A DNA stretch of 64,000 nucleotides from contig JBBCAX010000033.1 of assembly GCA_051382335.1 (NCBI GenBank), positions 49,123 to 113,122 on the forward strand. Direction: 5' to 3'. This document shows, in pieces, positions 3,230 through 45,376 of this stretch; position 1 is the stretch's first letter, and each line of letters begins with the position of its first letter. Position numbers and translations under genes: made by a program. The notes under the pieces were generated by a model. It saw only the letters and a program-made list of their open reading frames with translations. It was not told where the DNA came from and made no database searches. This DNA comes from Deltaproteobacteria bacterium TL4 (GTDB taxonomy: Bacteria > SAR324 > NAC60-12).

Positions 3230-4669
3230 TTGCAAAAAGTCCAAACTATGAAATCTATTCTTGTTATCTCGCAATCATCATCGTCACAAGAAATACACCA
3301 GGCGTTATTTGCAAAGTACCGTATTGATGTAGCCTCTAGCTTTCAGGAATGTTTTCAAAAATATTCGCAAAATCGTTATGAATTTGCCTTCCTTGAATTA
3401 ACCCTGTTGCAAGAAAATTTTTCAGAATATACCCTCGACAACTGCAGAAAAGCACTTCAACCCCTCAGACGAGTTTTTCCAGCCTCCCAAATTATCGTGA
3501 TTTCCAGACAGGATCAGCTGAGAGACGCTGTGTTTGTCCTTAAAGCTGGTGCGAGTAATTACCTCACGACACCAATCAACGCTGATGAGCTTAAGCACGT
3601 CATTGAAAGCACCAATGAGGCGATTCGTATTAGGTCTGAATTGGATTATCTTCGGGATCAGTTTTGGCAAAGAGACTCGCTCCAAATCATCCGAACCAAT
3701 AATGCTGTCATGAAAAAAGTATTTCAGCAGATACGTTCTGTGGCTCCTACTAAAACAACGGTGTTATTGCTAGGAGAGACGGGAGTAGGGAAGGGTATAA
3801 TTGCTAAACTGCTTCATCATCACAGTGAACGTCAAAATAATCCGTTCATTCATGTCCATTGTGGTGCCATGCCTGACACTCTGCTCGAAAGTGAATTGTT
3901 TGGACACGAAAAAGGTGCGTTTACCGGGGCGGTGAAAAGAAAACTGGGGCGCTTTGAAATTGCAAAAGGGGGAACCATTTTTTTGGACGAAATCAACACC
4001 ATTACTCCTGCGGCACAAATTAAATTATTACAAGTTTTGCAGGATAAAATATTTCAACGTGTGGGGGGGGAACACTTTATTGAATCCGATATTCGTGCCA
4101 TTATCGCCTCTAACCAGGATTTGCGCAAAATGAGTGAAGCCGGAGAATTTCGGAGTGATTTATATTATCGCTTGAGTGTGTTTCCTATTGAAATTCCGCC
4201 TTTAAGGGAACGTCCTGAAGATATTCTGATTTTGGCCAATACGTTTCTTGACAAACTCAATCAACTCTATTTTAAAGAGATCTATGATTTCCATCCTCTG
4301 GTAATAGAAGCACTGCAGAAATACCTGTGGCCTGGTAATATTCGGGAATTGGAGAACCTCATGGAGCGGGCTTACATTTTAGAAACATCTTCTGTCTTAA
4401 CTCCTGAAAGCTTTCCTCAGGAATTGTTTAATTCAGATCTTCCTAAGGCTAAAGTGCTTTTGGATACCTCCTTGTCTTTGGCGGAAATGAGACAACTCAA
4501 CCTGGAGTACATCGAACGACAGTATCTGAAAGAACTGTTGGCCCGCCATCAAGGAAAGATCAATCATACCGCTGAAGCTGCCGGGATTAGCACCCGCCAA
4601 CTTCATAAATTACTCACAAAATACAAAATTCGTAAAGAAGAATTCAAAAATGTCACGTTCCATATATAG
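3230..4669 (+). CDS. sigma-54-dependent transcriptional activator (NtrC/Fis family) with atypical receiver
   Basis: It has an AAA+ sigma-54 interaction domain (GETGVGKGIIAKLLHH Walker A, ESELFGHEKGAFTGA GAFTGA motif) and a C-terminal Fis-type HTH. The N-terminal receiver-like domain lacks the acidic pocket and the phospho-Asp position (FLELTL where D is expected). Confidence 0.85.
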   Translation: MQKVQTMKSILVISQSSSSQEIHQALFAKYRIDVASSFQECFQKYSQNRYEFAFLELTLLQENFSEYTLDNCRKALQPLRRVFPASQIIVISRQDQLRDAVFVLKAGASNYLTTPINADELKHVIESTNEAIRIRSELDYLRDQFWQRDSLQIIRTNNAVMKKVFQQIRSVAPTKTTVLLLGETGVGKGIIAKLLHHHSERQNNPFIHVHCGAMPDTLLESELFGHEKGAFTGAVKRKLGRFEIAKGGTIFLDEINTITPAAQIKLLQVLQDKIFQRVGGEHFIESDIRAIIASNQDLRKMSEAGEFRSDLYYRLSVFPIEIPPLRERPEDILILANTFLDKLNQLYFKEIYDFHPLVIEALQKYLWPGNIRELENLMERAYILETSSVLTPESFPQELFNSDLPKAKVLLDTSLSLAEMRQLNLEYIERQYLKELLARHQGKINHTAEAAGISTRQLHKLLTKYKIRKEEFKNVTFHI

Positions 4670-8500: not shown

Positions 8501-10059
8501 TTGATTAGAACCCCCTGAGTGTTAGTGGTTAAATCGATTTTGTATCGAAATCCAGCCTCTAAAGGCACTTGAGGAGTAATTACCACAGTATTGATGACGC
8601 CCGAAACTGCTTCAAAAGAAATTTTCGCAGACACCTCTTGTGGATTATCAAAATCGTCAGTGGTGTAATCACCCCCCGCAAAATCTGCTTTTTGAATCAC
8701 ATCTTTGAGGAATACGTTATCAATATACGGCATTAATGCTTCATTGAAACGTACTTTGATACTTGTCGGAGCGGTTGTCGTCATGAAACCATCGGTGCTG
8801 GCTGTATCCATTGTTCCATTGCTTGTTAAAACAGCCGTCACATAAGGCATGATCACGTCCTGGATCGCCGTTACTCTAGGTAGGAAAATCGCTCCTGCTT
8901 GTGCGGCTCCTGGGAATACTCCATTATTGAACATTCCTAAAGAATAATTTCTTCGAGGTTCAATCGCCGTGGCACTGTCATAGGTTTTGGTTTGATAGCC
9001 TGTGGCCGAAATACTGATAGCATTTATTTTATCCCATGTTCCATCACAACCCAGATCCGCGGCAACCAAACCTGTAAGGGTAAATCTTCCATTTTCATCT
9101 GTTGTTACCGTTATAGGTGGAACAGAAAAAGTGTTCATGATGACGGTATCCCCGTTCGCTGTTTTATCGGAAGACACATTTTTTTCTGGCGCATGAATCA
9201 CACAATTGTACTCGTTGACCAGGTTGGTTCCCGCCGTGACACCTACTGCGGCATCAACAGTTTCCAAATTAACAACCGCTCCCGCAATAGGTTGGGCTGT
9301 TTCCGCATCGACAATCACCCCTGTAAGCGTTGAGGAATAGTCTGGAATAATGAAGTCATAGTTATCGGTTCCAGCTTCAATGGGAATATCAGTTGTAAAA
9401 TCTGTGGTTGATCCCTCTGGGGATGAGATGGTTGGAAGTGTTTTAGCCACGGTTCCCACAACTGCGTTTCGGATCACCGCTGTAATGGCAGACACCCCCG
9501 TTCCTATTTTTACAACGATGGTATAAGTCCCTCTAATTTTATCGGACCCACTCCAATAACCGTTGCCATCGCCATCATACCAACGAGAAGGTTCAAGGTT
9601 ACAGAAGAAATAGATCCCTAACGCATTGGTCGTTGCGGTTCGTATCGCACCTGAAGACGCAAGCGATACAATGGCTCCTTCGATGGAGTTTCCGCTTTGA
9701 TCCACAACAGAACCCTGAATGTCGAATCCTGTCGCGGCGGTACTGGTCTCAGCGCAAATTGCTTCAACCCCTGCAAAGCCGTCTTTTCCATCTTTTCCAT
9801 CTGCTCCATTTACTCCCGCAGCGCCTGCCGCACCTGCTGCACCATTGGTTCCAGGTGCTCCATCCACGCCATTCGTTCCTGCTGCCCCATTAGCTCCCGC
9901 AGCGCCTATTTCACCTGGAGCACCTTTCATTCCAGGCTTTCCATCGTCCCCTTTCAACGACTCACAGCCACCCCAAGCCAAGGCCAGAATAGCAACAAGT
10001 ACCATCATTGATAAACTCAATGAACAAAACCTCGTTGATTTCTTCTTATTCCCTATCAT
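5524..10059 (-). CDS. giant secreted surface protein with N-terminal collagen-like (Gly-X-Y) repeats and Thr/Ser-rich Ig-like/carboxypeptidase-regulatory-like region
   Basis: 1511-aa ORF with a signal peptide (MIGNKKKSTRFCSLSLSMMVLVAILALAWGG). It carries about 20 consecutive GXY triplets (GKPGMKGAPGEIGAAGANGAAGTNG...GKDGKDGFAG). The rest is a long T/S/N/G/A-rich low-complexity region. Confidence 0.8.
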   Translation of the reverse strand: MIGNKKKSTRFCSLSLSMMVLVAILALAWGGCESLKGDDGKPGMKGAPGEIGAAGANGAAGTNGVDGAPGTNGAAGAAGAAGVNGADGKDGKDGFAGVEAICAETSTAATGFDIQGSVVDQSGNSIEGAIVSLASSGAIRTATTNALGIYFFCNLEPSRWYDGDGNGYWSGSDKIRGTYTIVVKIGTGVSAITAVIRNAVVGTVAKTLPTISSPEGSTTDFTTDIPIEAGTDNYDFIIPDYSSTLTGVIVDAETAQPIAGAVVNLETVDAAVGVTAGTNLVNEYNCVIHAPEKNVSSDKTANGDTVIMNTFSVPPITVTTDENGRFTLTGLVAADLGCDGTWDKINAISISATGYQTKTYDSATAIEPRRNYSLGMFNNGVFPGAAQAGAIFLPRVTAIQDVIMPYVTAVLTSNGTMDTASTDGFMTTTAPTSIKVRFNEALMPYIDNVFLKDVIQKADFAGGDYTTDDFDNPQEVSAKISFEAVSGVINTVVITPQVPLEAGFRYKIDLTTNTQGVLIKDKAGNSYKGWVDLDGNGAFTCPSGKDNGTAGEPVDALSFDTSLTCSGAPAVANAGILDFTIAAETPTFVAPTVVASSADTAAATLLEPTVKVHVDWTPVVGAYAYRVWGQGLEIQESSTRTIGPFVEIGETKLSYDPPSEMSWTGTNFWDTWDDNATNAGLEDNDTEGAFATYSLEDATDASGDGWTLMQMDVKVGPIDINGLEGTQSTTVRVKDNTPPRIGPANLTAATRNYPFARVTLDSDGNTVDISSVESYSDNTNSQGSDSLTAARDSFRTNDQSTKYNITIKTSEPLAKATVNVDANNDGKSDNITLVMVNNAFENTSLTSTEATLYYGADPASAAGTKVPAITALDGKNMASGLGNTSVNYGTATSFSSWPGLDLNNDSEATAKSKYQAITLGLDNVFNVRTGLGIQLTGITDLHGNTITSTHKVGYLVDGIPPLAQTVTVSTTEDYVEVTFTEPVNVTTIVGGLALAGGLTVNANHPKLVAGVIGFTQLQNNGVNTAYAYETDTKTKVRIYVNDVSAQLTSATGETLVANTTVADLAPTVSLYDGTNNIAGANTVANDASGATVLNGSDNGTYLNAYGAGLAGKIDEVGPRLTETTNAAPITITETGADFATDDEMILSPATVVVNYTEAMNNSVDLYGDDYATSICNPANYAITYNTGSSTGAATLAGTPGTTSSADGSTFKIRSVVCNSSTRATLTLARNFVGTVDYDSDGATTITATADAGQNNRIIGVNPVMDGFGGISLKDFVVTTANLQQDDTKGTTTTAMTNVTARHFIKKGDLKRIFGDTYTAANPTLTVEVYFFTTNKAVGLDSDANSFEINTTNNETTITDIGSVANPTNFTPIPSGYKIKTITVGAANDIADADSTQTPAVTGEYVKVSIALIKAGTAAEPPLTGGNATGAAITYAYTAGTEVATTDQTVAVTKGPANTIIVTGVVDALGNTIDVTGNREVYTWTYAADSGENDNNDTDLVPGFHSLPSGRY

Positions 10060-10376
10060 TTCTTTTCTCCAAGATATGTTTTCTCCAACCGTTTCAACGG
10101 ATGAAAATTAACGTTAACGGATACAGATGATTCGACACATGACCCTAGTATTTTTTGAGCAATAAAAAACATTCATCAGAATGTCAAATTCTTTTTCTAA
10201 AACAAAATCAAAAATAACTTGAAACCCTCATTGATTCTCAATACTAACAATAAAAGGCCATTGTCTAGCTAAAAATACGAACAAAAAAATCCTTGTCTTT
10301 GGAGTTTTTTCCTCGTTAATAGAATTAGGGTATGGATTTTACCCACATTCTCACGGCATGTAATTTAGTGTTTCAG

Positions 10377-10453
10377 AAAAGTATTTTGGGCTGGGAGCGC
10401 AGGCGTCCCGCCTGCTTTTGCGGGCAGGATGCCCGTATTCCCAGGAAAAACTT
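10377..10453. repeat. palindromic dispersed repeat element, copy A (~75 bp)
   Basis: Imperfect palindrome with GGCGTCCCGCCTGCTTTTGCGGGCAGGATGCC at its core. It shares about 85% identity with the copies at 10481-10554 and 20314-20386. Confidence 0.8.
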
Positions 10454-10480
10454 ATCTGAAAGTCTATAGTTGTCCAGATA

Positions 10481-10554
10481 AATTTCTGTTGGGAACGCAG
10501 GCGTCCCGCCTGCTTTTGCGGGCAAGATGCCTGCGTTCCCAGGACAAAACTTTT
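10481..10554. repeat. palindromic dispersed repeat element, copy B
   Basis: GGGAACGCAGGC / GCCTGCGTTCCC perfect 12-bp outer arms flank the inner CCCGC-loop-GCGGG hairpin. This is the best-preserved copy. Confidence 0.85.
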
Positions 10555-10597
10555 CTGGAGAAGTAGACACACGATCCCTAGCAACGAGATTCATGGA

Positions 10598-11546
10598 ATG
10601 TGTACAATTCGTCTGGGTTTATTAGGGCTGATTTTTGTAATCAGTCTTGTTGCCACCATTTTCGCTCAAGAGGAACCGGTAAGCGAAGGTAAAGGGGAAG
10701 GTCAAATTTGTGCCCTTTTCAAGCCAGGTGTCGAATGTCCAGGTGAAGCGGGTCTTTCACAGGCAGAAGCCGTTGCTTTGGCATCCCTCATGCGAAACGC
10801 TGAATTTGGGGTAGGTGAAGTCCTGGGCGCTTCGGATGAAGAGGGGGGGGGGAAGTGGGGACGATAAAGGCAAAAAAGGAGGAGCGGGAACCACTACCGG
10901 CAGTGTTGGAACCAACTTTGGTTATTCAGAAAGCGTCCAACTCTTTATGTTTCCGTTCTCCTATTCGCTAACGCAGACAATCCAAATTTCCGCTAATTTT
11001 CCATTCATTCGCGTGGAAAACGTCGAAGGAATGGGGAATCCTTCTGTATCTATGAAAGTATTTTATTCCTTCTTTGGTTTTTCAGCGTTGACTTCCGTGA
11101 CTTCCAAACTTCCCGTTGGTGATGAAGAACTCGGCGCGCGTCAAGACACCAATGATTATGTCTTTAGTCAAACGCTCCTTAGGGACATGGGCTTTTCCCG
11201 AATTTTTGGTAATTATACTTATATGTACATTCCTCAAGGCGAAAGCGACATTGATGTTGGCGATGTTTCTATGGGGATGTTGGGGCTGGATATGCCCTTG
11301 CCCTTGGGAGACAAGATTAATGTTTATGGTGCTCTTTTTTCAAGCCAGAACTTTGCTGATAAAAACGGGGATGGAAATCGGATTTGGGATACCCAGCAGA
11401 TTACGATGGATACCACGTTCGGTTTGGTATTTCGCGACATTAACTTAAGGACAGGGATTACAGTTCCTGTTTATACCTATTCCAAGCAAATAGAACACTC
11501 GGATCGTAGTCCTCTTTTTGACGTTGGATTTCGCTTTTCATTGTAA
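10598..11546 (+). pseudogene. outer-membrane beta-barrel protein gene interrupted by a frameshift at a G10 homopolymer (possibly phase-variable)
   Basis: ORF 10598-10867 encodes a signal peptide (MCTIRLGLLGLIFVISLVATIFAQ) and runs into ...EEGGGKWGR*. ORF 10815-11546 is in the +1 frame; it continues GGSGDDKGKK... and ends in a beta-barrel-like C-terminus (...FDVGFRFSL). The two frames meet at GGGGGGGGGG (10843-10852). Confidence 0.55.
10843..10852. repeat. poly-G homopolymeric tract (10 G)
   Basis: Counted directly from the sequence: gaaGAGGGGGGGGGGAAGTGGGG. Confidence 0.9.
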
Positions 11547-11615
11547 GGGTCGTTTGCTAGCGTTAGTTTAATTTTAGTCAAAAACATAAAAAACATAGTC
11601 CATATTGAGGTTTCT

Positions 11616-14600
11616 ATGAAGATAAAAGCGTACACGATTTTGCAATTCTTGTTCTTGTTATTCCTGAGTGCACTCTTCGTTTCAAGTTGTGGAGAAGACA
11701 AAAAAGAGAGGCCCAATGATGGGGCTGTCGACAGCCGTATTACTTTTGAACTCCGTTGGCCTGATACTTCCAGTAGTTCAGCAACTGCGTCGCAATACCG
11801 GATTTTTCCCATTCCTTCTAACGTGGATACCGTTCGGATGGTGGTATTAAACGCGGCAGGAGAGATAGCCCGGAGCGGTGCTGGAGATCTTTTGGAAAAA
11901 GATTTTGATTCAAATACAGGTGTAGGTTTTGTGGAGGGCGTTCCCGCTGGTGAGGGCTACACAGTACGTTTTGTCGCCTTTGACTCTCAATCTTTTCCAA
12001 GATATCGTGCCGCTCGCGAAGAGGTGACGGTTGTCGCAAACACCACCACCAAGCTGGGAACGATTGATATGGATGTGGCCCACGTGAACTCTTCCGCGGT
12101 AGTTACTAAAACTGTACAACCCGGAGAGCAATGTCCCTTTGGTGGAGTGCAAATTGAGATGGGGATTGATAGGGATGGCAGTGGTACTCTGGATGAAAAG
12201 GAAGTTACCAAATTCGAGGTGGTCTGTAATGGAATCAGAGGGCCAGTCGGAGCCAGTGGCGCAATTGGAGTCTCTACCCTGCTCAATATTGAAGAGATCC
12301 TCACAGACGATACTGAATGCGGAATACTGCACGGTAAAAAAATTGAGTATGGAAAAGACGATAATAACAATGGTATTCTGGAACCCGTGGAAGTGGATAC
12401 CACTTCCTACATTTGTAACGCAACGGCTCCCGGGCTGAGCATCAATAGAAGAAGTTTGTTTACCAACGAACTGGGAGCTTCAGACGGTTTTACGCTTCGC
12501 CTCAATTCAAAACCCACCAATGATGTGATCGTCAAGATCGAAAATTCCAATAGTAGCGAGGTAAAAGTATTTCCGGATCAAGTGGTTGTGACTCCAGATA
12601 ACTGGCAGGACAGTCAACCGGTAACGGTTACTGGCGTCAGAAATACAACAACCACCCAGGACCAAATCGTGCAATTGACTCTGAGCTTTGAGAGTGAAGA
12701 TGTGGTTTACAAGAAACTTGACCCGCTCAACGTCTCAGTCACTAATGTTCATATTGAACCTCCCGCAAAAGAATTTTCTTCCCACAATGAGCTGGTTTCA
12801 ACGCTGGCCGGTTCTTTCACGGAGGATGACATTAAATTATTTGATGGAATCGTCAGGGGAGTGAATAACGGATACTACGACAACACCCTATATTTGTTTG
12901 CCACTGATTCCAACAATCACATTGTTTACAGAATTAACATCAATACCCATGTTATTGAAGTTTATGTGGGTAAAAAAGGATTTTCAGGAAATGGGGTTGG
13001 GAGCGCTACCAATTCCCGGTTTAAAAACCCAAGAGGAATCACCATCGATAGCAGTACCGGGTTTTTATATGTGGTGGACTCCGGAAACGGAAGGATTATC
13101 AGGATTGATACCGATACTCCCACCGCCGGTACGACTGCCCTTGTAAATATGTCTGGTTCTCTGAATGAGCCTTGGGGCATCACGCTTAGGCAAGGCACCC
13201 TTAATATTACTGAAATTGGTGCTCATCGTGTGAGGACACTTTCCACAGCCGGAGGATCTCTTGGAGTCCTTGCAGGGGATGCTGTTGGTTATGCCGATGG
13301 TTCTGGAGGATCAGCCCGTTTTAACAAACCCAAGGGAATCCACTTTGATGGAACTAACTTTTTTGTGGCGGACTCTGGAAATCATGCTATCCGACAAATT
13401 ACTCTAGCTGGCGTTGTCACTACCGTTGCCGGAATAGGAACGACTGCGGGTGCCAAAGATGGTGACCGTGCTACAGCTCTGTTTGACACCCCTGTCGGAA
13501 TCACTGGTGATAGTACCTACCTTTATGTTTCCGCACAAGGGCAATATCCGCTGCGTAAAATCGAGAAAGGCAAAGGCGCAACTTCCACGTTAGTCCAATT
13601 TCAAGGCAGTTTAGATGGCGGCTCAAGTATCGCGAGGTTTAATGATCCATCGGCAATTTTGTGTGACGATAATACTCTGTATATCAGTACCTCCAATAGA
13701 TTTCGCAAGCTGGATCTCATTCAGGGAACAATCATCACCATGATTGGAAGATCCTCCACCAATGGTTCCGGTACCTCAGCCCGTTTTGACCGGCCTGTTA
13801 ACCTTGTCGCTGGTCCCAATGGCAAGATTATATACATTACGGACTATTACAATCACACGATCCGAACCATGAACCTCACCTCAAATGCGGTAGGTACCTT
13901 GGCTGGGGTTGCCGGAAAGGCAAGTACTACAGAGGCGGCTGTGGCACCTGGAAATCTCTTTTTTCCATGGGGCCTTACGTCAGATGGTACGTATCTTTAT
14001 GTGACTGAACCCAAAAGTCATACGATTCGCAGAGTCAGCATTGATACCGGTGTCACAAAAACCATTGGTGGTACCGCTTTTACCCACGGATCCTCTGAGG
14101 GAATTGGGACCACAGCCTTATTTAATACACCTTATGGCATTGCCACCGATCTGAAAAACCTGTATGTTGCCGATTCGGAAAACCACGTGATCCGGAAAAT
14201 GGATCTCCAAACGTTTCGTGTGAGTATCTTTGCTGGGGATCTCGGCACACCAGGATCATCTGGTGGCGTTTCGTCCGCCCAATTCAATCAACCTAAGGCT
14301 CTCACTAGCGATGGCGTCAACCTCTATGTCATCGATCAAAATGGAATCCGAATAGTGGAAATGTCATCAGGCAAAGTGAGTACAATTTCTGGAACTTCTG
14401 GTTTGAAGAACAGTCTTGGTCTTTCCTCAGACGGAATCAATCTTTATGTGAGTGATACTGATCATCATCAAGTTCAAAAAGTGGTGATTAAAACAGGGGC
14501 TATTGCTATTTTGGCAGGCAATAATAGTGAGGCCCTGAATACGGACACGGTTTGGGATTTAACCTATACTCCTATGATTACAACGCCCGCACGGTTTCAT

Positions 14601-14711
14601 ACACCAGCGGGGATTCTCTTTGGTGATCTTTTCGGAACAGATAAAGAAGAAATTTTTCTGGTTGATGCCGTTGCGGGAACACTTCGGAAAATGGCTCAGC
14701 AAAACAACTAA
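11616..14711 (+). CDS. NHL-repeat beta-propeller lipoprotein
   Basis: It has a lipoprotein signal with lipobox (LFVSSC). It has multiple NHL repeats (YVVDSGNGRIIRID, VADSGNHAIRQI, YVTEPKSHTIRRV, YVADSENHVIRKMD, YVSDTDHHQVQKV). 1031 aa. Confidence 0.85.
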   Translation: MKIKAYTILQFLFLLFLSALFVSSCGEDKKERPNDGAVDSRITFELRWPDTSSSSATASQYRIFPIPSNVDTVRMVVLNAAGEIARSGAGDLLEKDFDSNTGVGFVEGVPAGEGYTVRFVAFDSQSFPRYRAAREEVTVVANTTTKLGTIDMDVAHVNSSAVVTKTVQPGEQCPFGGVQIEMGIDRDGSGTLDEKEVTKFEVVCNGIRGPVGASGAIGVSTLLNIEEILTDDTECGILHGKKIEYGKDDNNNGILEPVEVDTTSYICNATAPGLSINRRSLFTNELGASDGFTLRLNSKPTNDVIVKIENSNSSEVKVFPDQVVVTPDNWQDSQPVTVTGVRNTTTTQDQIVQLTLSFESEDVVYKKLDPLNVSVTNVHIEPPAKEFSSHNELVSTLAGSFTEDDIKLFDGIVRGVNNGYYDNTLYLFATDSNNHIVYRININTHVIEVYVGKKGFSGNGVGSATNSRFKNPRGITIDSSTGFLYVVDSGNGRIIRIDTDTPTAGTTALVNMSGSLNEPWGITLRQGTLNITEIGAHRVRTLSTAGGSLGVLAGDAVGYADGSGGSARFNKPKGIHFDGTNFFVADSGNHAIRQITLAGVVTTVAGIGTTAGAKDGDRATALFDTPVGITGDSTYLYVSAQGQYPLRKIEKGKGATSTLVQFQGSLDGGSSIARFNDPSAILCDDNTLYISTSNRFRKLDLIQGTIITMIGRSSTNGSGTSARFDRPVNLVAGPNGKIIYITDYYNHTIRTMNLTSNAVGTLAGVAGKASTTEAAVAPGNLFFPWGLTSDGTYLYVTEPKSHTIRRVSIDTGVTKTIGGTAFTHGSSEGIGTTALFNTPYGIATDLKNLYVADSENHVIRKMDLQTFRVSIFAGDLGTPGSSGGVSSAQFNQPKALTSDGVNLYVIDQNGIRIVEMSSGKVSTISGTSGLKNSLGLSSDGINLYVSDTDHHQVQKVVIKTGAIAILAGNNSEALNTDTVWDLTYTPMITTPARFHTPAGILFGDLFGTDKEEIFLVDAVAGTLRKMAQQNN

Positions 14712-20313: not shown

Positions 20314-20386
20314 AAGTTTTGTCCTGGGAACGCGGGCGTCCCGCCCACTTTTGCGGGCAAGATGCCGCGCTCCCGGGGAAAAACTT
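20314..20386. repeat. palindromic dispersed repeat element, copy C
   Basis: AAGTTTTGTCCTGGGAACGCGGGCGTCCCGCCCACTTTTGCGGGCAAGATGCCGCGCTCCCGGGGAAAAACTT. The outer arms AAGTTTTGTCCTGGG / CCCGGGGAAAAACTT are inverted. Confidence 0.8.
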
Positions 20387-29175: not shown

Positions 29176-30465
29176 TTATGAAAACTTTATTTTGAAGGAA
29201 GTGCCCTTTGCTCTGTCTATCTCGATTGTCCCCTTGAGTTGGTCTGTTAAAATATTGACTAATTGTAACCCCAATGCCTCAGTTTCCCGGATGTCCAAGT
29301 CTTGAGGCAATCCCATCCCATTATCACTGACCAAAAGAGTGTATAGTCCTTCATTATCTTGAAAAAAGCTTATCTGGACTGTTCCTTTTTCTCCTTCTTT
29401 GAATGCGTGTTTAAACACGTTGGACAGTAACTCGTTGATGATCAAACCACAGGGAATGGCCTTTTGAATGTCTAAAGAAACTTCCAAAACTTTTTTGGTG
29501 ATCGTAATTCGCTCTGGAACTGAAATATAAGAGGCCAGTAAGGCATTGGTTAACTCGTTGATAAATTGATTAAAATCGATCTTGGAAAAATCAGAGGTTT
29601 TATAAAGTTTTTCATGAATGAGTACCATGGTCTGGATACGATTCTGCGTTTCAAGGAATAATTCAACATCATTGCGATTTTTTACTTTGGGGATCTGCAG
29701 TTTGAGAAAAGCCGCAACCATCGCCATATTATTTTTTACTCGATGATGAACTTCCTGCAACAGCACTTCTTTTTCTTTGAGCGAATTTTGGAGTCTCTGT
29801 TCTGCACGCCTGCGTTCCTCAATTTCCTGATGGAGTTTCTCATTGGTTATTTTTAGTTCGCTGGTCCTTTCTTCTACGCGAATTTCCAATTGATCATGGG
29901 CTTTTTGTAATTCCTCATGGGCTTTTTGAAGTGCATCCTTAGTTTGCGTTAATAGTCGGTTCGTCGCTTCATATTGCTGGGCCTTATGGGTTGTCATTCC
30001 TAATTTTTCACTCAAAATCATTGCAAAAAGCCGATATAAAATATCTTTTAATTCTTTTGAATCAGAATCGGAATATTGACCGATATCCTGAGCCTGTAGA
30101 CTGAATAAATCGACAAAGCCGTTGGCAACAACCGTAGCAGAACAGGTTTTTTCGCTGATGACACTCATTTCTCCAAAAATATCACCGATCCGCTTGAGTG
30201 TTAAAATCAGTTCTCCTGAGGCATAGATGGAGACTTCTCCCCGCGTTAGAAAAAAAACTCTATCGTTAAACTGACCTTCTGATAAAATCTTATCGCCATC
30301 CGAGTATCGGTGTATTTTTACCAAGGGGATTAGGGATTTTAATCGCTCTTGATCTAGATGACCAAAGAGCCTTGAACGGCTTAAATAGGTTAAAACTTCC
30401 CTGTTTTCTTCAAACAAATGTTGATCCATTTCATTTTTCATAAGCCCGTTAGCAAGGAGAGACAT
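29176..30465 (-). CDS. cytoplasmic sensor histidine kinase with N-terminal cNMP-binding domain (HisKA_2/HWE-type H-box + HATPase_c)
   Basis: The cNMP-binding fold is FGHLDQERLKSLIPLVKIHRYSDGDKILSEGQ...GEVSIY...FGEMSVI. A coiled coil follows, then the H-box HHRVKNNMAMVAAFL and the ATPase G-boxes (DNGMGLP, GLGLQLV). Confidence 0.8.
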   Translation of the reverse strand: MSLLANGLMKNEMDQHLFEENREVLTYLSRSRLFGHLDQERLKSLIPLVKIHRYSDGDKILSEGQFNDRVFFLTRGEVSIYASGELILTLKRIGDIFGEMSVISEKTCSATVVANGFVDLFSLQAQDIGQYSDSDSKELKDILYRLFAMILSEKLGMTTHKAQQYEATNRLLTQTKDALQKAHEELQKAHDQLEIRVEERTSELKITNEKLHQEIEERRRAEQRLQNSLKEKEVLLQEVHHRVKNNMAMVAAFLKLQIPKVKNRNDVELFLETQNRIQTMVLIHEKLYKTSDFSKIDFNQFINELTNALLASYISVPERITITKKVLEVSLDIQKAIPCGLIINELLSNVFKHAFKEGEKGTVQISFFQDNEGLYTLLVSDNGMGLPQDLDIRETEALGLQLVNILTDQLKGTIEIDRAKGTSFKIKFS

Positions 30466-30905: not shown

Positions 30906-30967
30906 ATAAATAGTTATTCGAGGGACATTTCCCTTGATAAATAGTTATTCGAGGGACATTTCCCTTG
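30906..30967. repeat. perfect 31-bp tandem direct duplication (ATAAATAGTTATTCGAGGGACATTTCCCTTG x2)
   Basis: Read directly from the sequence. It lies between the response-regulator gene and the PAS/kinase genes on the same strand. Confidence 0.9.
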
Positions 30968-31111: not shown

Positions 31112-31846
31112 CTATTTATTGGTGTTCAATATTGCATAACGAAGAAGTTGATTGCTGCTCGAGAATTTTAGTTTTTTCATAATATTCGAACGATGCGTTT
31201 CAGCGGTTCGCGTACTGATACTTAATTGAGTAGCAATATCTTTTATGGAGTATCCAAGGGCAATGAGTTCAAAAATTTCTGTTTCGCGTGAAGTTAAGGA
31301 CTGCAAAGAGTGATGTTCTCTTTGAGTACGAACCTCATATTGCTCCAAAAGTTCTTCAACTTTGTTGGATATGTATGCATCCAAATTTTCCTGGAGCGTT
31401 TCTTTTTTTTCCAGGTATTTTATTTCTTTGTCCTTATAAAGAGCCATTTCAATCGTTGCCTGCAATTCTTCTGTTTTTACAGGTTTTACCAAGTATCCAA
31501 AGGGGGAGGTCAATTTGGCTCGGTCTAACAACTCAGGACTGGTATAGGCGGTCAGGTAAATGATTGGAATTTTAAATTGAGAATGTAAATAATTTGCGGT
31601 TTCAATTCCATCCATCTCTCCTTCCAAAGCAATGTCCATCAAAATTAAATCTGGACGACTTGTCATCGTTTTCTGAATAGCCAACTCACCCGATTTTGCA
31701 ACATCAACTATGTGATACCCTAACCATTTTAACTCATTTTTTAAGCTCAGAGCTAAAACGCCTTCATCTTCCACAATCAAAATACTTGCTTCGACTGGTT
31801 TTTTCGGGTTTTCTGAGAACAGTTCCACTACATTTTCATTCGGCAT
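31112..31846 (-). CDS. two-component response regulator, receiver + LuxR/FixJ-type HTH
   Basis: The receiver is LIVEDEGV...LILMDIAL...YLTAY (D, D and K positions present). The C-terminal LuxR HTH is LTSRETEIFELIALGYSIKDIATQLSISTRTAETHRSNIMKKL. Confidence 0.85.
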   Translation of the reverse strand: MPNENVVELFSENPKKPVEASILIVEDEGVLALSLKNELKWLGYHIVDVAKSGELAIQKTMTSRPDLILMDIALEGEMDGIETANYLHSQFKIPIIYLTAYTSPELLDRAKLTSPFGYLVKPVKTEELQATIEMALYKDKEIKYLEKKETLQENLDAYISNKVEELLEQYEVRTQREHHSLQSLTSRETEIFELIALGYSIKDIATQLSISTRTAETHRSNIMKKLKFSSSNQLLRYAILNTNK

Positions 31847-37989: not shown

Positions 37990-38289
37990 CTTTTATTCCA
38001 GCACCCTTTAAAGTCAAGGTATAAGCGTGGCACAAGAGGTCAATCACTCTCTTCGGATCAAAAACTGGTCATTACGTGATCGCTTATATTGTGGACTGCT
38101 GACACCATTTTTTCGACTCATTGGAAACAAATTTTTCACACCCTTTTCCTTTCCTGAAAAAAAAAAACTAAAAAAGTGTCAGAAAATTCTTTTTTTTACT
38201 TCCTTTTCTGAAAATTTTGAGATAAATGGCTTTATATGAGATGAGATTTTTAACTTAGGGGAGTTATTTACTTTATTTAAAAAATAGGA

Positions 38290-41200
38290 ATGGTCATTAT
38301 GGAAAGATTTTTCGTAAAAATCGTACTAATTCTACTCAGTTTGCTAATCCCTCTTTGGTTTGTTGCTTGTGAGGGCAAAAAGAATGACTCGACAGATCCC
38401 AAAAATGCTGCTGAGGCGACTGGTGTCATTACTGGGATTATCAAAGATACCTCGACGAATAAACCCCTGAAAGGTGTCGTGATCTCTGCGGTGGCTGGAG
38501 AGGCTACTTTTACCGCGGAATCTGCCATCGATGGTAGCTTTATTCTGGAAATAAAACCGGTTCAAAGGACGGATGGTTATGATGTTCAGTTTTCCAAAGA
38601 GGGGTATGAAGCGGCTACAAAATCTGCGGTTTTCGATCTGCCAAATTTGCGGGTGGAGTTGGGAACGGTACTCTTGACTCCGGTCAGCACTGAGAAGACT
38701 CCCTCTGGCAAAATTATTGGTCTTGTCAAGGATTCAGCTACCATTAAAGGTATAGCTGGAGTCAAAGTCTCCGTAGATGTTAAAGGGACCATCGTCACTA
38801 CCGATACTGACTTAACGGGTGCCTTCACACTAGAGGTGAAGGGAGCACAGGCAGGAGAAGGTTATAGTGTGCAATTCTCAAAAGATGGATATCAGAATGC
38901 GACAAGAGCCGCCAGCTTTGATCAAAAATTGGAAGTGGATTTGGACGTTGTTTCTCTAACCCCGTCCACAACAAGTGTCACTTCAGGGGGTACCACTTCA
39001 GGGGGTACCACTTCAGGAGGGACTACTTCAGGAGGGACTACTTCAGGGGGGACTACTTCAGGGGGGACTACTTCAGGAGGGACTACTTCAGGAGGGACCA
39101 CTTCAGGGGGGACTACTTCAGGAGGGACTACTTCAGGAGGAGACGCTTCGGAAGATGTCATCGAACCCACAATCAAGACAGGTGTGATCCAGGGGACAAT
39201 TAAGGATAACTCGGGTAGTCCACTGAAAGAGGTACAAATATTTTTAAGTATTGGAACTTCCACACTTAATATGAAATCGGGAGTCGATGGTACTTTTTCC
39301 ATGAGTGTTGAAGGCGTTCAAGAAAATGAAAATTACAAAATTGCCTTTAGTAAAGAAGGCTATGAAAAAAATTCACAGGTGATCAGTTTTGATACCTCCG
39401 ATTTGAAAGTCGACATGGCAACGGTTTCCTTGACTAACGAGGATATCACACCTGTAGAAACGCACGCAGGTCAACTGACCGGGATTGTTAAAGATGTTGT
39501 TTCTGGAAATCCCCTGGAAGGGGCAAAAATATATGTATTTGTCAATGATCTCTATTACGCTGCGTCGGGAGTTGATGGCGCGTTCGCACTGGAATTAAAT
39601 GGAATCCAGGATGCCGCGGCTTCTGCGATTCTGATTAAAAAAACAGGATATCAAGACTTCAGTAATACGATCCTTTTTGCCTCACCCACTTATAATTTGG
39701 AAATGGGAGTTGTTTCCTTATCTCCAGTTCAGGTGGTAGCCGAAAAGAAAATTGTGGGTACGGTCATTGACAGTTTTTCCGCTTCCGGTTTGGCCAATGT
39801 CTTGGTAACCGTTCAAGATTCAAAGTCAGCAACCAAGACGGCTCTTACCAACGAGAATGGGGAATTCAGTATTTCTGGAAAAGATTTTTATCTGGAGAGT
39901 TCTTATACACTGAGTCTGACCAAAACCAATTATGTCGAACGTTCTGATGTCAGCGTAACGATCAGCGGGGATACAAACCTCATTGATAAAAGTATTGTTC
40001 GACTTTATAAGCAAGCTGGAAAAATTAGTGGCGATATCAAGGATGAGGCTACAGGTACTCCTCTAAAAGATACGGTTGTAACCGCTACGGACAGCCTGGG
40101 CGCTGAAGTCTCGGCAACGACAGACGCACAGGGGCACTTCACACTGGCAAGCGATTACTTCCTTTTGGGAGAAACTTATCAGGTTGTTGTTTCCGGAGGT
40201 TCTGATTTTCACCCTACGCAAACCAGTGTTAAGATTTCTACAACGTCGGATCAATCGCCGAATCTCATTAGTGAGGTTACGCTTTTGAAACCTGTCAGTG
40301 TATCCGGAATCGTCAAAGACACTAACGGAAATCCCATTTCTAATCTTAAGGTAACTGTTGAGGGACTTCCGGATGAGGTCATCACGGATGGTGAGGGCAA
40401 GTTCACGCTTTCTGGGACAAGCTATCTGAGAAACACGGCCTATAAACTGACATTTACGAAAGAAGGTTATACTTCTGAAACAGTAACCTCCTCACTCCTT
40501 GGTACTGGGGTAAACATCATGGGTGATATCCAACTTGCGGCTGAAGTCACAACGCCTCCCGTGGAACAACCCTCTTCTGGCTGGAGGAGCCTTTCCGGAA
40601 AAGTCGTTGATTACTGGAAAGATGCGATAGGTTTGAGTCCGACCGCGCTTCAGGATGCCACTGTGAAAGTGACAGACGATGGCACTGCCATCCGTTCTGA
40701 TCTAACCGATGCGAATGGAAGTTTTGAAATCAGTGGAAATTTTACTGTCGCAAAAAATTATACGCTGACTATTAGCAAAAGTGGTTTTACCGGAACTCAG
40801 GAAATGGAGCTAAAATCGGAGGTAACAATGGGCAACGCTCCTTATACATCAGGAACATTCGCCCTCTATCCTCTTGGTGTGTTTACTAAACTCAAACGAT
40901 CCACGGATAGTAGTTCAACTGAACTCAATTTGAATCAACAGTTGAAACAGACTTATGAAAAATTTCTCACCGGCAAAACAGGTTTTACCTTATCGGCCCG
41001 GGATGATAACGATCTGAATAAGGCCAACACCTTCTATATCCATCTGGATGACAGTTCTTTTCCCTCTTCATTACCCAGTGGTTTGGGCAAGCATTCCAAT
41101 TACCTGGCAGTGGGCGGAGCCCAGAAAAAAGGTGCCTTGACGGAAGGCCTCGGCAGTGACTCCCGAATTACAAATACTCAATGGGAAGGAACTACCACAA

Positions 41201-41763
41201 ACTGGGGTTTGAAGAATTTTGTATTGTATCACTTTTATGCGGCTCAGGCTGGGACTTATACCATTGAAACTACCAGTTCCACCGATACTGTTCTGATTCT
41301 CTATGATGCCTCAGGTACTAAAAAGATTGAAGATGACAATAGCGGTACCGACAAAAACGCAAAAATAACCTATACGGTGCAATCTTCTGACTCAGGTAGT
41401 TGGTATTTTGTCCAGGTTAAAGGCGCGAATGACAGTACTTTTGGTCTTTTCGAGATCCAGGTATCAGGACCTGAACTTTCAGCTCAGATAACCACTTTGC
41501 CGCAAACGTGGGATACCACTACTGCCGATAAAGGAATTGTCCTTTCCTGGTATGATCAGGCTTATCATAAGCTTTATATTGCCGCTCCTGATGAAAGCGT
41601 TTCTTCCGGTTCTATTACGATCAGCCATTTTGGTGCTATTGGAAAAATTGTCCGAGGGCAATTCCCCAAAGAGGGTTCTGATGGCGTCATGCGAGCGGTA
41701 GACGACAGTGGGGCAACCGTTGAGATTCAAAAAGGTTATTTCAACATTCTAAGAAGCGAGTAG
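38290..41763 (+). CDS. surface lipoprotein with ~12 carboxypeptidase-regulatory-like (CarboxypepD_reg/Cna-B-like) repeats, a (GGTTS)n linker and a C-terminal PPC (pre-peptidase C-terminal) domain
   Basis: It has a lipobox (LWFVAC). There are about 12 repeated modules of roughly 90 aa (G.I.G.VKD..T..PL.GV.V...G....T...G.F.L), each ending in Y.V.FSKEGY-type strands. The C-terminal domain has PPC-like features ([17 protein letters not shown]...WYFVQVKG). Confidence 0.7.
38984..39141 (+). repeat. 15-bp in-frame tandem repeat (~10 units) encoding (GGTTS)n
   Basis: The units GGTACCACTTCAGGG / GGGACTACTTCAGGA repeat head-to-tail. The minus-strand ORF here translating to (PPEVV)n is antisense noise. 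Confidence 0.85.
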
Positions 41764-44062: not shown

Positions 44063-45376
44063 ATGACCGCCCAATTCAAAAAAGTGCGGGTCGTCTCCGG
44101 ACTCGCCCTGATGACCTTATTGCTCCTCATCGCCCTCTTTTTTTTTCTCAAGTTATCCGAACCAGAACCCGTTTTGACCTTTCGAGGCGGAAGCATTTCT
44201 CAGAATACTTACCATTTTCTTCATCAAACCGAGTATGCCCATCTGAATGATGATGAATTAATTCAAAAATTAAAGGATCGAGAAGTTCAGGGAGCTTTGG
44301 CGACCAAACAAGGTTTGAAGGATAACAAAATGTATCACTGGGCTTTAAATTTAAGAAGAAGAAGCCGATTGAGCCGGGGGGCTCATTTAATTTGGAGAAA
44401 CTTGGATCCCGCCCATTCAGATGAAAATTTTGAGTATGATCAGATTTGGAAGGACTTGAAATTCGAGATAAATCTGGATCACCTCTCTGAGCAAATTACT
44501 CAGTATGTGGACAAAAATGAAATTAATCCCCGTTTGAAAATCGATCCTGAGGACTTGATCGCAGGGCGTTGGAGTGAGGGGGAAATTACCTTGGCTATGT
44601 TGAAAAAGGAGATGTTGAGTGAAGAATGGGAACGGATGCTGACTTTTGCGCCTGTTCCTCGCAAACAGGAATTGAGCGCTGCACTGAAAACCGTGACTGA
44701 TTTTTTTCTCTACAGTAAAGCGATCAAGCGGTTCCGGGCGGTTGAAGAAGAGCTGATTCGTCAGGATCACAATCACGTCGCTGCCATTTATCTCCCTGCC
44801 CGTTATGGTCAATCGGCGGGTGCTTTTCCGGTGGACCCCATTCAGATTGAGTTTAAGTCCACAGAATTATTTGATCATTTTTTCAAAATCAAAGAGAGCT
44901 TAAAAAGAATTAATTGGGTCAAATGTCGTTATGTCGTGGTTAACGATTCAACAACCGCCGAACTTGTTTATGAACGGCTGAGAAATGGGGATCCCTTTTT
45001 ATCACTGGCCGAAATCTATGCCATCAATAAAGATTATCTTCAGACGGCTGGTGAAATAAATCAGATCTACCGGGTTGATCCCAAATATGGTTTGGAGCGG
45101 GATCATCTTCGTCCCTATATTGAACGTGTGATACTCTACATGGCAAAGGAAGAAATACGGTTGCCAAAGCCGCTTCCCCTGGATAAAGGTTACCTTGTCG
45201 CGGATCTTTTGAAGATAGAAAAAGAGAATGAGGAACTCCAATTTAAAGACTTTCGGATCATGGTCAAACTGGATCTTCAGAAAGAATTATTGGCACGTCA
45301 GTTTCCCATTGATTTGCAGGATATGCGACAGGAACTCAATTTTCAGCAATTTGAAATAAAACCGATACCTCAATAA
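44063..45376 (+). CDS. membrane-anchored parvulin-type peptidyl-prolyl isomerase-like protein (SurA/PrsA/PpiD-like)
   Basis: It has an N-terminal TM anchor. The parvulin-like segment CRYVVVNDSTTAELVYERLRNGDPFLSLAEIYAINKDYLQTAGEI fits the HIL....A..i...l..G..F..lA..yS pattern of PpiC domains. Confidence 0.45.
   Translation: MTAQFKKVRVVSGLALMTLLLLIALFFFLKLSEPEPVLTFRGGSISQNTYHFLHQTEYAHLNDDELIQKLKDREVQGALATKQGLKDNKMYHWALNLRRRSRLSRGAHLIWRNLDPAHSDENFEYDQIWKDLKFEINLDHLSEQITQYVDKNEINPRLKIDPEDLIAGRWSEGEITLAMLKKEMLSEEWERMLTFAPVPRKQELSAALKTVTDFFLYSKAIKRFRAVEEELIRQDHNHVAAIYLPARYGQSAGAFPVDPIQIEFKSTELFDHFFKIKESLKRINWVKCRYVVVNDSTTAELVYERLRNGDPFLSLAEIYAINKDYLQTAGEINQIYRVDPKYGLERDHLRPYIERVILYMAKEEIRLPKPLPLDKGYLVADLLKIEKENEELQFKDFRIMVKLDLQKELLARQFPIDLQDMRQELNFQQFEIKPIPQ

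Follow-up and report, generated by a model that had tools for sequence, protein, structure and literature searches.

We describe a gene at positions 10598-11546 (+ strand) of a 64-kb stretch of DNA from Deltaproteobacteria bacterium TL4, a member of the SAR324 lineage; the whole stretch is referred to as the window. The locus is almost certainly a single gene for an outer-membrane channel resembling FapF and the COG4313 proteins, whose frame is broken by one extra G in a run encoding three glycines. Its parts are as follows (residue numbers refer to the fused protein):

10843-10852, + strand: homopolymer of ten G (G10), read as GAG GGG GGG GGG A in the N-terminal frame
10598-10867, + strand: 5' part of the gene as read with G10, encoding a signal peptide (residues 1-23), the Cys38/Cys47 motif and a helix (residues 55-77)
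10709-10738, + strand: Cys38-x8-Cys47-Pro motif (QICALFKPGVECP), conserved without exception at the N-terminus of eight full-length homologues
10845-11546, + strand: 3' part of the gene in the +1 frame, encoding the remaining linker and the barrel, with its stop codon at 11544-11546
10899-11543, + strand: predicted 12-stranded outer-membrane β-barrel domain, FapF/COG4313-like (residues 101-315, all-β)

The N-terminal open reading frame (ORF; 10598-10867) encodes 89 amino acids and ends in a TAA codon (10865-10867) four codons past G10. The second ORF (10815-11546; 243 amino acids) lies in the +1 frame and starts 28 nt ahead of the tract. Both frames are jointly open only across 10815-10864, and the sole homopolymer in this overlap is G10. 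The tract position, ORF coordinates, frames and peptide ends given in a preliminary description of the locus were all correct on re-reading of the sequence. Changing the tract length in silico bore out its further claim that the two frames differ by +1 and that nine or twelve G would yield one protein of about 315 amino acids: G9 gives a continuous product of 315 residues and G12 one of 316, G10 gives 89 residues, and G11 runs into a stop after about 129. In the G9 frame the tract forms the codons of Gly83-85 within a disordered linker, so that one glycine more or less should be harmless.

An exhaustive HMMER scan of 1.84 billion representative proteins yielded 53 homologues of the fused protein; the fused protein itself matched no Pfam or NCBIfam model, even at E ≤ 10. 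The full-length homologues (P0003-P0013; 278-588 amino acids), mostly from SAR324 metagenome-assembled genomes (MAGs), are single ORFs with the same layout as the fused protein. They begin with a signal peptide and a 'G-x-x-C-I-x7-C-P' motif; a low-complexity linker, either acidic or rich in Lys, then leads to a C-terminal domain of some 215 residues, at the end of which stands an aromatic-x-hydrophobic β-signal. Both halves of the TL4 gene match these single-ORF proteins. When the N-terminal ORF is aligned with the N-termini of eight homologues, Cys38 and Cys47 are the only invariant columns, which identifies the 89-residue ORF as an authentic N-terminus. Nothing else in the gene is damaged: neither half has a further stop or indel, and every family motif is kept.

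The closest relative, 44% identical, is encoded in the TL4 genome itself as a paralogue (MGK5093704.1, WDW89_17045), followed by proteins from SAR324-cluster and 'Deltaproteobacteria' MAGs; no second paralogue was found within the window. The paralogue is annotated as 'partial' because its start coincides with the edge of a 53-kb contig, eight codons upstream of EEGGG. Its EEGGGEGD corresponds to EEGGGSGD in the G9 product, and since this segment aligns across the tract, homology backs both G9 as the frame and three as the number of glycines. On this comparison, the ancestral tract was likely G9. With the halves matching single-ORF homologues and the paralogue matching across the tract, the earlier proposal of one signal-peptide-bearing gene split over two frames holds. 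A word-indexed protein search with the fused protein returned the paralogue only, and the same search with a 43-sequence profile gave nothing new, as low-complexity linker words swamped its output.

The public annotation places a 164-amino-acid 'hypothetical protein' at 11053-11546, with an internal Met of the barrel as its start, and leaves the N-terminal ORF and the frameshift unannotated. The last 164 residues of our gene are identical to that protein (MGK5090858.1, WDW89_02440, TL4, on a contig of 126,890 bp), the one member of its protein cluster; the annotation thus covers only a C-terminal fragment, comprising the final 164 codons. The 164-residue call is wrong, and the correct annotation is either a 315-amino-acid gene or a frameshifted pseudogene.

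We modelled the fused protein with AlphaFold2 on a 43-sequence alignment, obtaining a mean predicted local distance difference test (pLDDT) score of 83.9; a two-sequence alignment had given 33. Residues 1-21 are modelled as a signal helix and residues 55-77 as a second helix (block mean pLDDT roughly 70-85); the region of the Cys motif between them is poorly defined. A linker predicted to be disordered follows (residues 78-100; pLDDT below 50 at 84-96) and leads into the barrel, modelled at pLDDT above 90. The predicted fold, a 12-stranded outer-membrane barrel, agrees with the β-barrel assignment made in the preliminary description. On this model, the gene product is a secreted outer-membrane channel of about 315 residues, predicted to comprise a signal peptide, a disulfide-type Cys-x8-Cys motif, a periplasmic helix, a Gly/Lys/Asp linker and the barrel.

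The family profile matches FapF chains with E values of 5e-13 to 2e-12, and PF13557 is matched by 3 of 43 family members, though not by the window protein alone. Of the two marks of the FapF/COG4313 class, a 12-stranded transmembrane barrel is predicted for the protein, and significant profile similarity is seen for its family. FapF, the amyloid-secretion channel of Pseudomonas (PDB 5o65), begins with a helical coiled-coil at its N-terminus, continues through a disordered linker of 42 residues and a plug helix, and ends in a barrel of 12 strands; COG4313 is its closest structure (PMC5557850). The predicted helix-linker-barrel plan of the window protein resembles that of FapF, whereas sequence identity is only about 14%, the Cys-x8-Cys head of the window protein is a motif undescribed for FapF, and no plug helix is predicted between its linker and barrel. 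The genomic setting differs as well: no fapA-E genes lie near the window gene, whose neighbour is an NHL-repeat lipoprotein, and a fapABCDEF operon with amyloid subunits was not found at the locus, where the neighbours encode a collagen-repeat protein, the NHL lipoprotein and a Wzy_C protein. Pput2725 (PDB 4rl8), a COG4313/PF13557 (Phenol_MetA_deg) channel, belongs to the same 12-stranded class, but the N-terminal extension of the window protein, with its Cys motif, helix and linker, has no counterpart in COG4313 channels.

The preliminary description had suggested a functional reading of the tract, as a phase-variation switch, and had named a homopolymer sequencing error as an equal possibility; the switch remains plausible. 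In phasome prediction, the cut-off for G/C tracts is seven, the modal lengths of known switches are 9G and 10G, and 'three consecutive glycines become 9Gs' is one named origin route of such loci (PMC6321876). As in the contingency genes defined there, a G/C tract of mutable length lies inside an ORF, and its length toggles in silico between a full-length and a truncated product (PMC6321876). Mechanistically, ancestral linker codons GAG-GGG-GGG-GGA (E-G-G-G) would have presented a run of nine G, to which slipped-strand mispairing would add one, giving G10. The frame would then be lost and translation would stop four codons on, leaving an 89-residue secreted stub without a barrel as the OFF state. 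With G9 and G12 as ON and G10 and G11 as OFF lengths, toggling in a population could be expected far above the point-mutation rate, because a G9/G10 run is intrinsically hypermutable. The gene would then be phase-variable de facto, whether or not the tract was ever selected for switching. Tentatively, and with confidence that stays a little under even, we favour the view that the extra G is real and represents such a slipped-strand OFF variant, in a gene that is phase-variable de facto, not a demonstrably evolved contingency locus.

Relative to the poly-G/C contingency loci of Campylobacter, Neisseria, Haemophilus and Helicobacter, several properties are alike: within the 5' third of a gene for a surface or outer-membrane protein there is a run of 9-10 G, and a one-base change toggles between full length and an early stop. 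The in-frame lengths differ here by one glycine in a disordered segment (cut-off and modal lengths from PMC6321876). In contrast to those host-adapted pathogens, TL4 is a free-living environmental deltaproteobacterium related to SAR324; moreover, the 64 kb hold one G10 and one incidental G8, the homologues have no such tract, and the locus is known here from one sequence. The tract is somewhat peculiar for the window: GGG makes up only 19% of glycine codons, and the four remaining Gly-Gly-Gly sites of long ORFs are encoded so as to avoid G runs.

Several observations weigh against the favoured reading. The genome and metagenome contig collections contained no same-species DNA, and variation in tract length was never observed. 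Genome-contig scans, with protein patterns and with DNA flanks separated by a variable gap, found no relative, and the source genome itself was also not retrieved. Metagenome contigs gave no match to the protein patterns; their DNA-flank scan returned 48 loci, all of them chance or other-gene matches, with no tblastn match and no G-run in the gap. The preliminary description had proposed comparing orthologues for frame and tract length. As to frame, full-length homologues are unsplit; as to the tract, no G/C run of at least 7 nt occurs in six homologue genes, whose linkers hold only A6-A8 runs of Lys codons (three independent assemblies of one homologue carry an identical A8), so the tract is not conserved in the family. 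The only other long G run in the window, an in-frame G8 encoding RVGG, indicates that incidental G runs are tolerated where this genome encodes Gly-Gly. It lies at 4063-4070 in an intact sigma-54 activator gene (3230-4669) and reads GTG GGG GGG GAA in a conserved RVGG. Chance alone would produce about 0.08 G/C runs of at least 10 nt per 64 kb, or about six per 5 Mb, and such a run arose in 14 of 300 third-order simulations. Neither maintenance of the tract among six homologues nor enrichment beyond chance in 64 kb of genome was found. Finally, as the longest G/C run in the window, G10 is the likeliest site of a miscall.

That last point bears on the most serious competing explanation, a homopolymer-length error, in which the organism carries G9 (or G12) and an intact, expressed gene, the extra G having entered during sequencing, assembly or polishing. 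Removing one base from this longest run restores a full-length, perfectly family-like protein without any other defect, and the sequence was taken from a draft assembly, among whose contigs are ones of 127 kb and 53 kb. Set against this, the window contains 52 homopolymers of at least 7 nt; 40 are situated within long ORFs, among them G8, T9 and several A8/T8, and apart from G10 not one coincides with a frame junction. The 40 other ORF homopolymers (7-9 nt) are all in frame, which argues that the assembly is not generally indel-prone, unlike an unpolished long-read assembly, and weighs mildly against an error. We consider an error somewhat unlikely but a serious alternative. A second alternative is an incidental, recent pseudogene, in which the three-glycine linker happened to be encoded by a G run, slippage broke the gene and switching was never selected; WDW89_17045 may then cover the function. 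The relatives without a G/C tract, the whole-genome chance expectation for a G10, the 44%-identical paralogue and the G8 in an ordinary regulator gene all fit this account. The absence of further stops and indels in both halves and the intact family motifs count against it, and because both halves are otherwise undamaged, any inactivation must be very recent. In addition, a G10 would revert often, blurring the distinction between a pseudogene and an OFF phase. On balance, we judge a pseudogene unlikely. Programmed recoding, that is, a fixed G10 with the full-length protein made by +1 ribosomal frameshifting or transcriptional slippage, is very improbable and was rejected: shifting by +1 on GGG-GGG-GGG-A would reproduce the G9 product EEGGGSGD exactly, but the full-length homologues are all single ORFs, so the frameshift is not conserved, the site has no obvious stimulator and no slow codon or stop directly past it (the next codon is AAG, the stop four codons on), and the documented cases of efficient transcriptional slippage in bacteria involve A/T runs, not G runs.

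Around the gene, we noted the following features:

10385-10450 and 10483-10548, + strand: two 66-nt imperfect palindromes resembling repetitive extragenic palindromes or miniature inverted-repeat transposable elements (REP/MITE-like), in the 540-nt region upstream of the channel gene
11616-14711, + strand: downstream lipoprotein gene (1031 amino acids), with lipobox VSSC, DUF7151 and NHL repeats
Partner lipoprotein genes beside the channel gene in other loci: L001, 8181-9677; L005, 7783-8343; L006, 2167-4296; L055, 1978-2985; L056, 4304-5311

The upstream gene is divergent and encodes a 1511-residue collagen-repeat protein. The two palindrome copies are 86% identical and stand in tandem, 98 nt apart, for a chance expectation of zero matches; a related core lies near 20332-20359. 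An Rfam search of 9800-11800 gave only sub-threshold chance matches on these REP-like palindromes, and a promoter and terminator scan near the channel gene gave nothing above shuffled expectation.

Downstream, the lipoprotein gene starts 70 nt past the stop codon of the channel gene and is followed by the gene for the Wzy_C protein. A homologue of this lipoprotein adjoins the channel gene in five further loci (L001, L005, L006, L055 and L056). Its N-terminal domain (about 130 residues) recurs beside the channel gene in L005 and L055 and, more weakly, in L056, and the neighbours in L001 and L006 share NHL and repeat regions with it. The pair is thus present in six distinct loci including the window, from SAR324-like genomes and metagenomes, and neither family is annotated. 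This recurrence points to a conserved module of channel and lipoprotein, in which the channel would be functionally paired with the downstream NHL-repeat lipoprotein and might export or anchor it. The single gene, the site of its frame break, the predicted fold, the family and the gene pairing are shown by the analysis, whereas we infer all three of the reality of the extra G, the switching and the service of the channel to the lipoprotein. A broader proposal combines them: a SAR324-lineage two-gene surface module, made up of a FapF-like channel with a Cys-x8-Cys periplasmic head and a cognate NHL/immunoglobulin-domain lipoprotein, would stand under poly-G phase-variable control in a free-living environmental bacterium, with the channel as a dedicated exporter or anchor and the tract gating the display of a large surface protein, for example against phage or grazers. 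We regard this combination as distinctly unlikely.

Other repeats occur elsewhere in the window. The 300 nt between two divergent genes hold an A11 (38157-38167) and a T8 (38190-38197), which precede by about 100-130 nt a gene (38290-41763) for a 1157-residue CarboxypepD_reg/PEGA surface protein and may possibly be a simple-sequence repeat (SSR) of the promoter-spacer type. The surface-protein gene also contains 10.7 copies of a 15-nt unit, ACTTCAGGAGGGACT, at 93% identity (38980-39140), forming an in-frame pentapeptide array whose copy number could be variable. A T9 (44138-44146) stands in frame about 25 codons into an ORF at 44063-45376 (437 amino acids, no Pfam match), and a perfect 31-nt tandem duplication (30906-30967) lies between a histidine-kinase gene (29176-30465) and a LuxR-type response-regulator gene (31112-31846).

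The switching mechanism would be textbook; what is new is the host lineage, together with the uncharacterised protein family and its gene pair. If G10 is real and variable, the locus would exemplify SSR phase variation outside host-adapted pathogens, in a poorly known, SAR324-related environmental lineage, in which the G-tract would mark a surface structure under fluctuating selection. Independent of any switch, the analysis brings to light an unannotated family of about 50 members without a Pfam or NCBIfam model, made up of FapF/COG4313-like channels of the outer membrane that have a conserved lipoprotein as their partner. This channel-lipoprotein pair provides a testable lead on the export or anchoring of surface lipoproteins.
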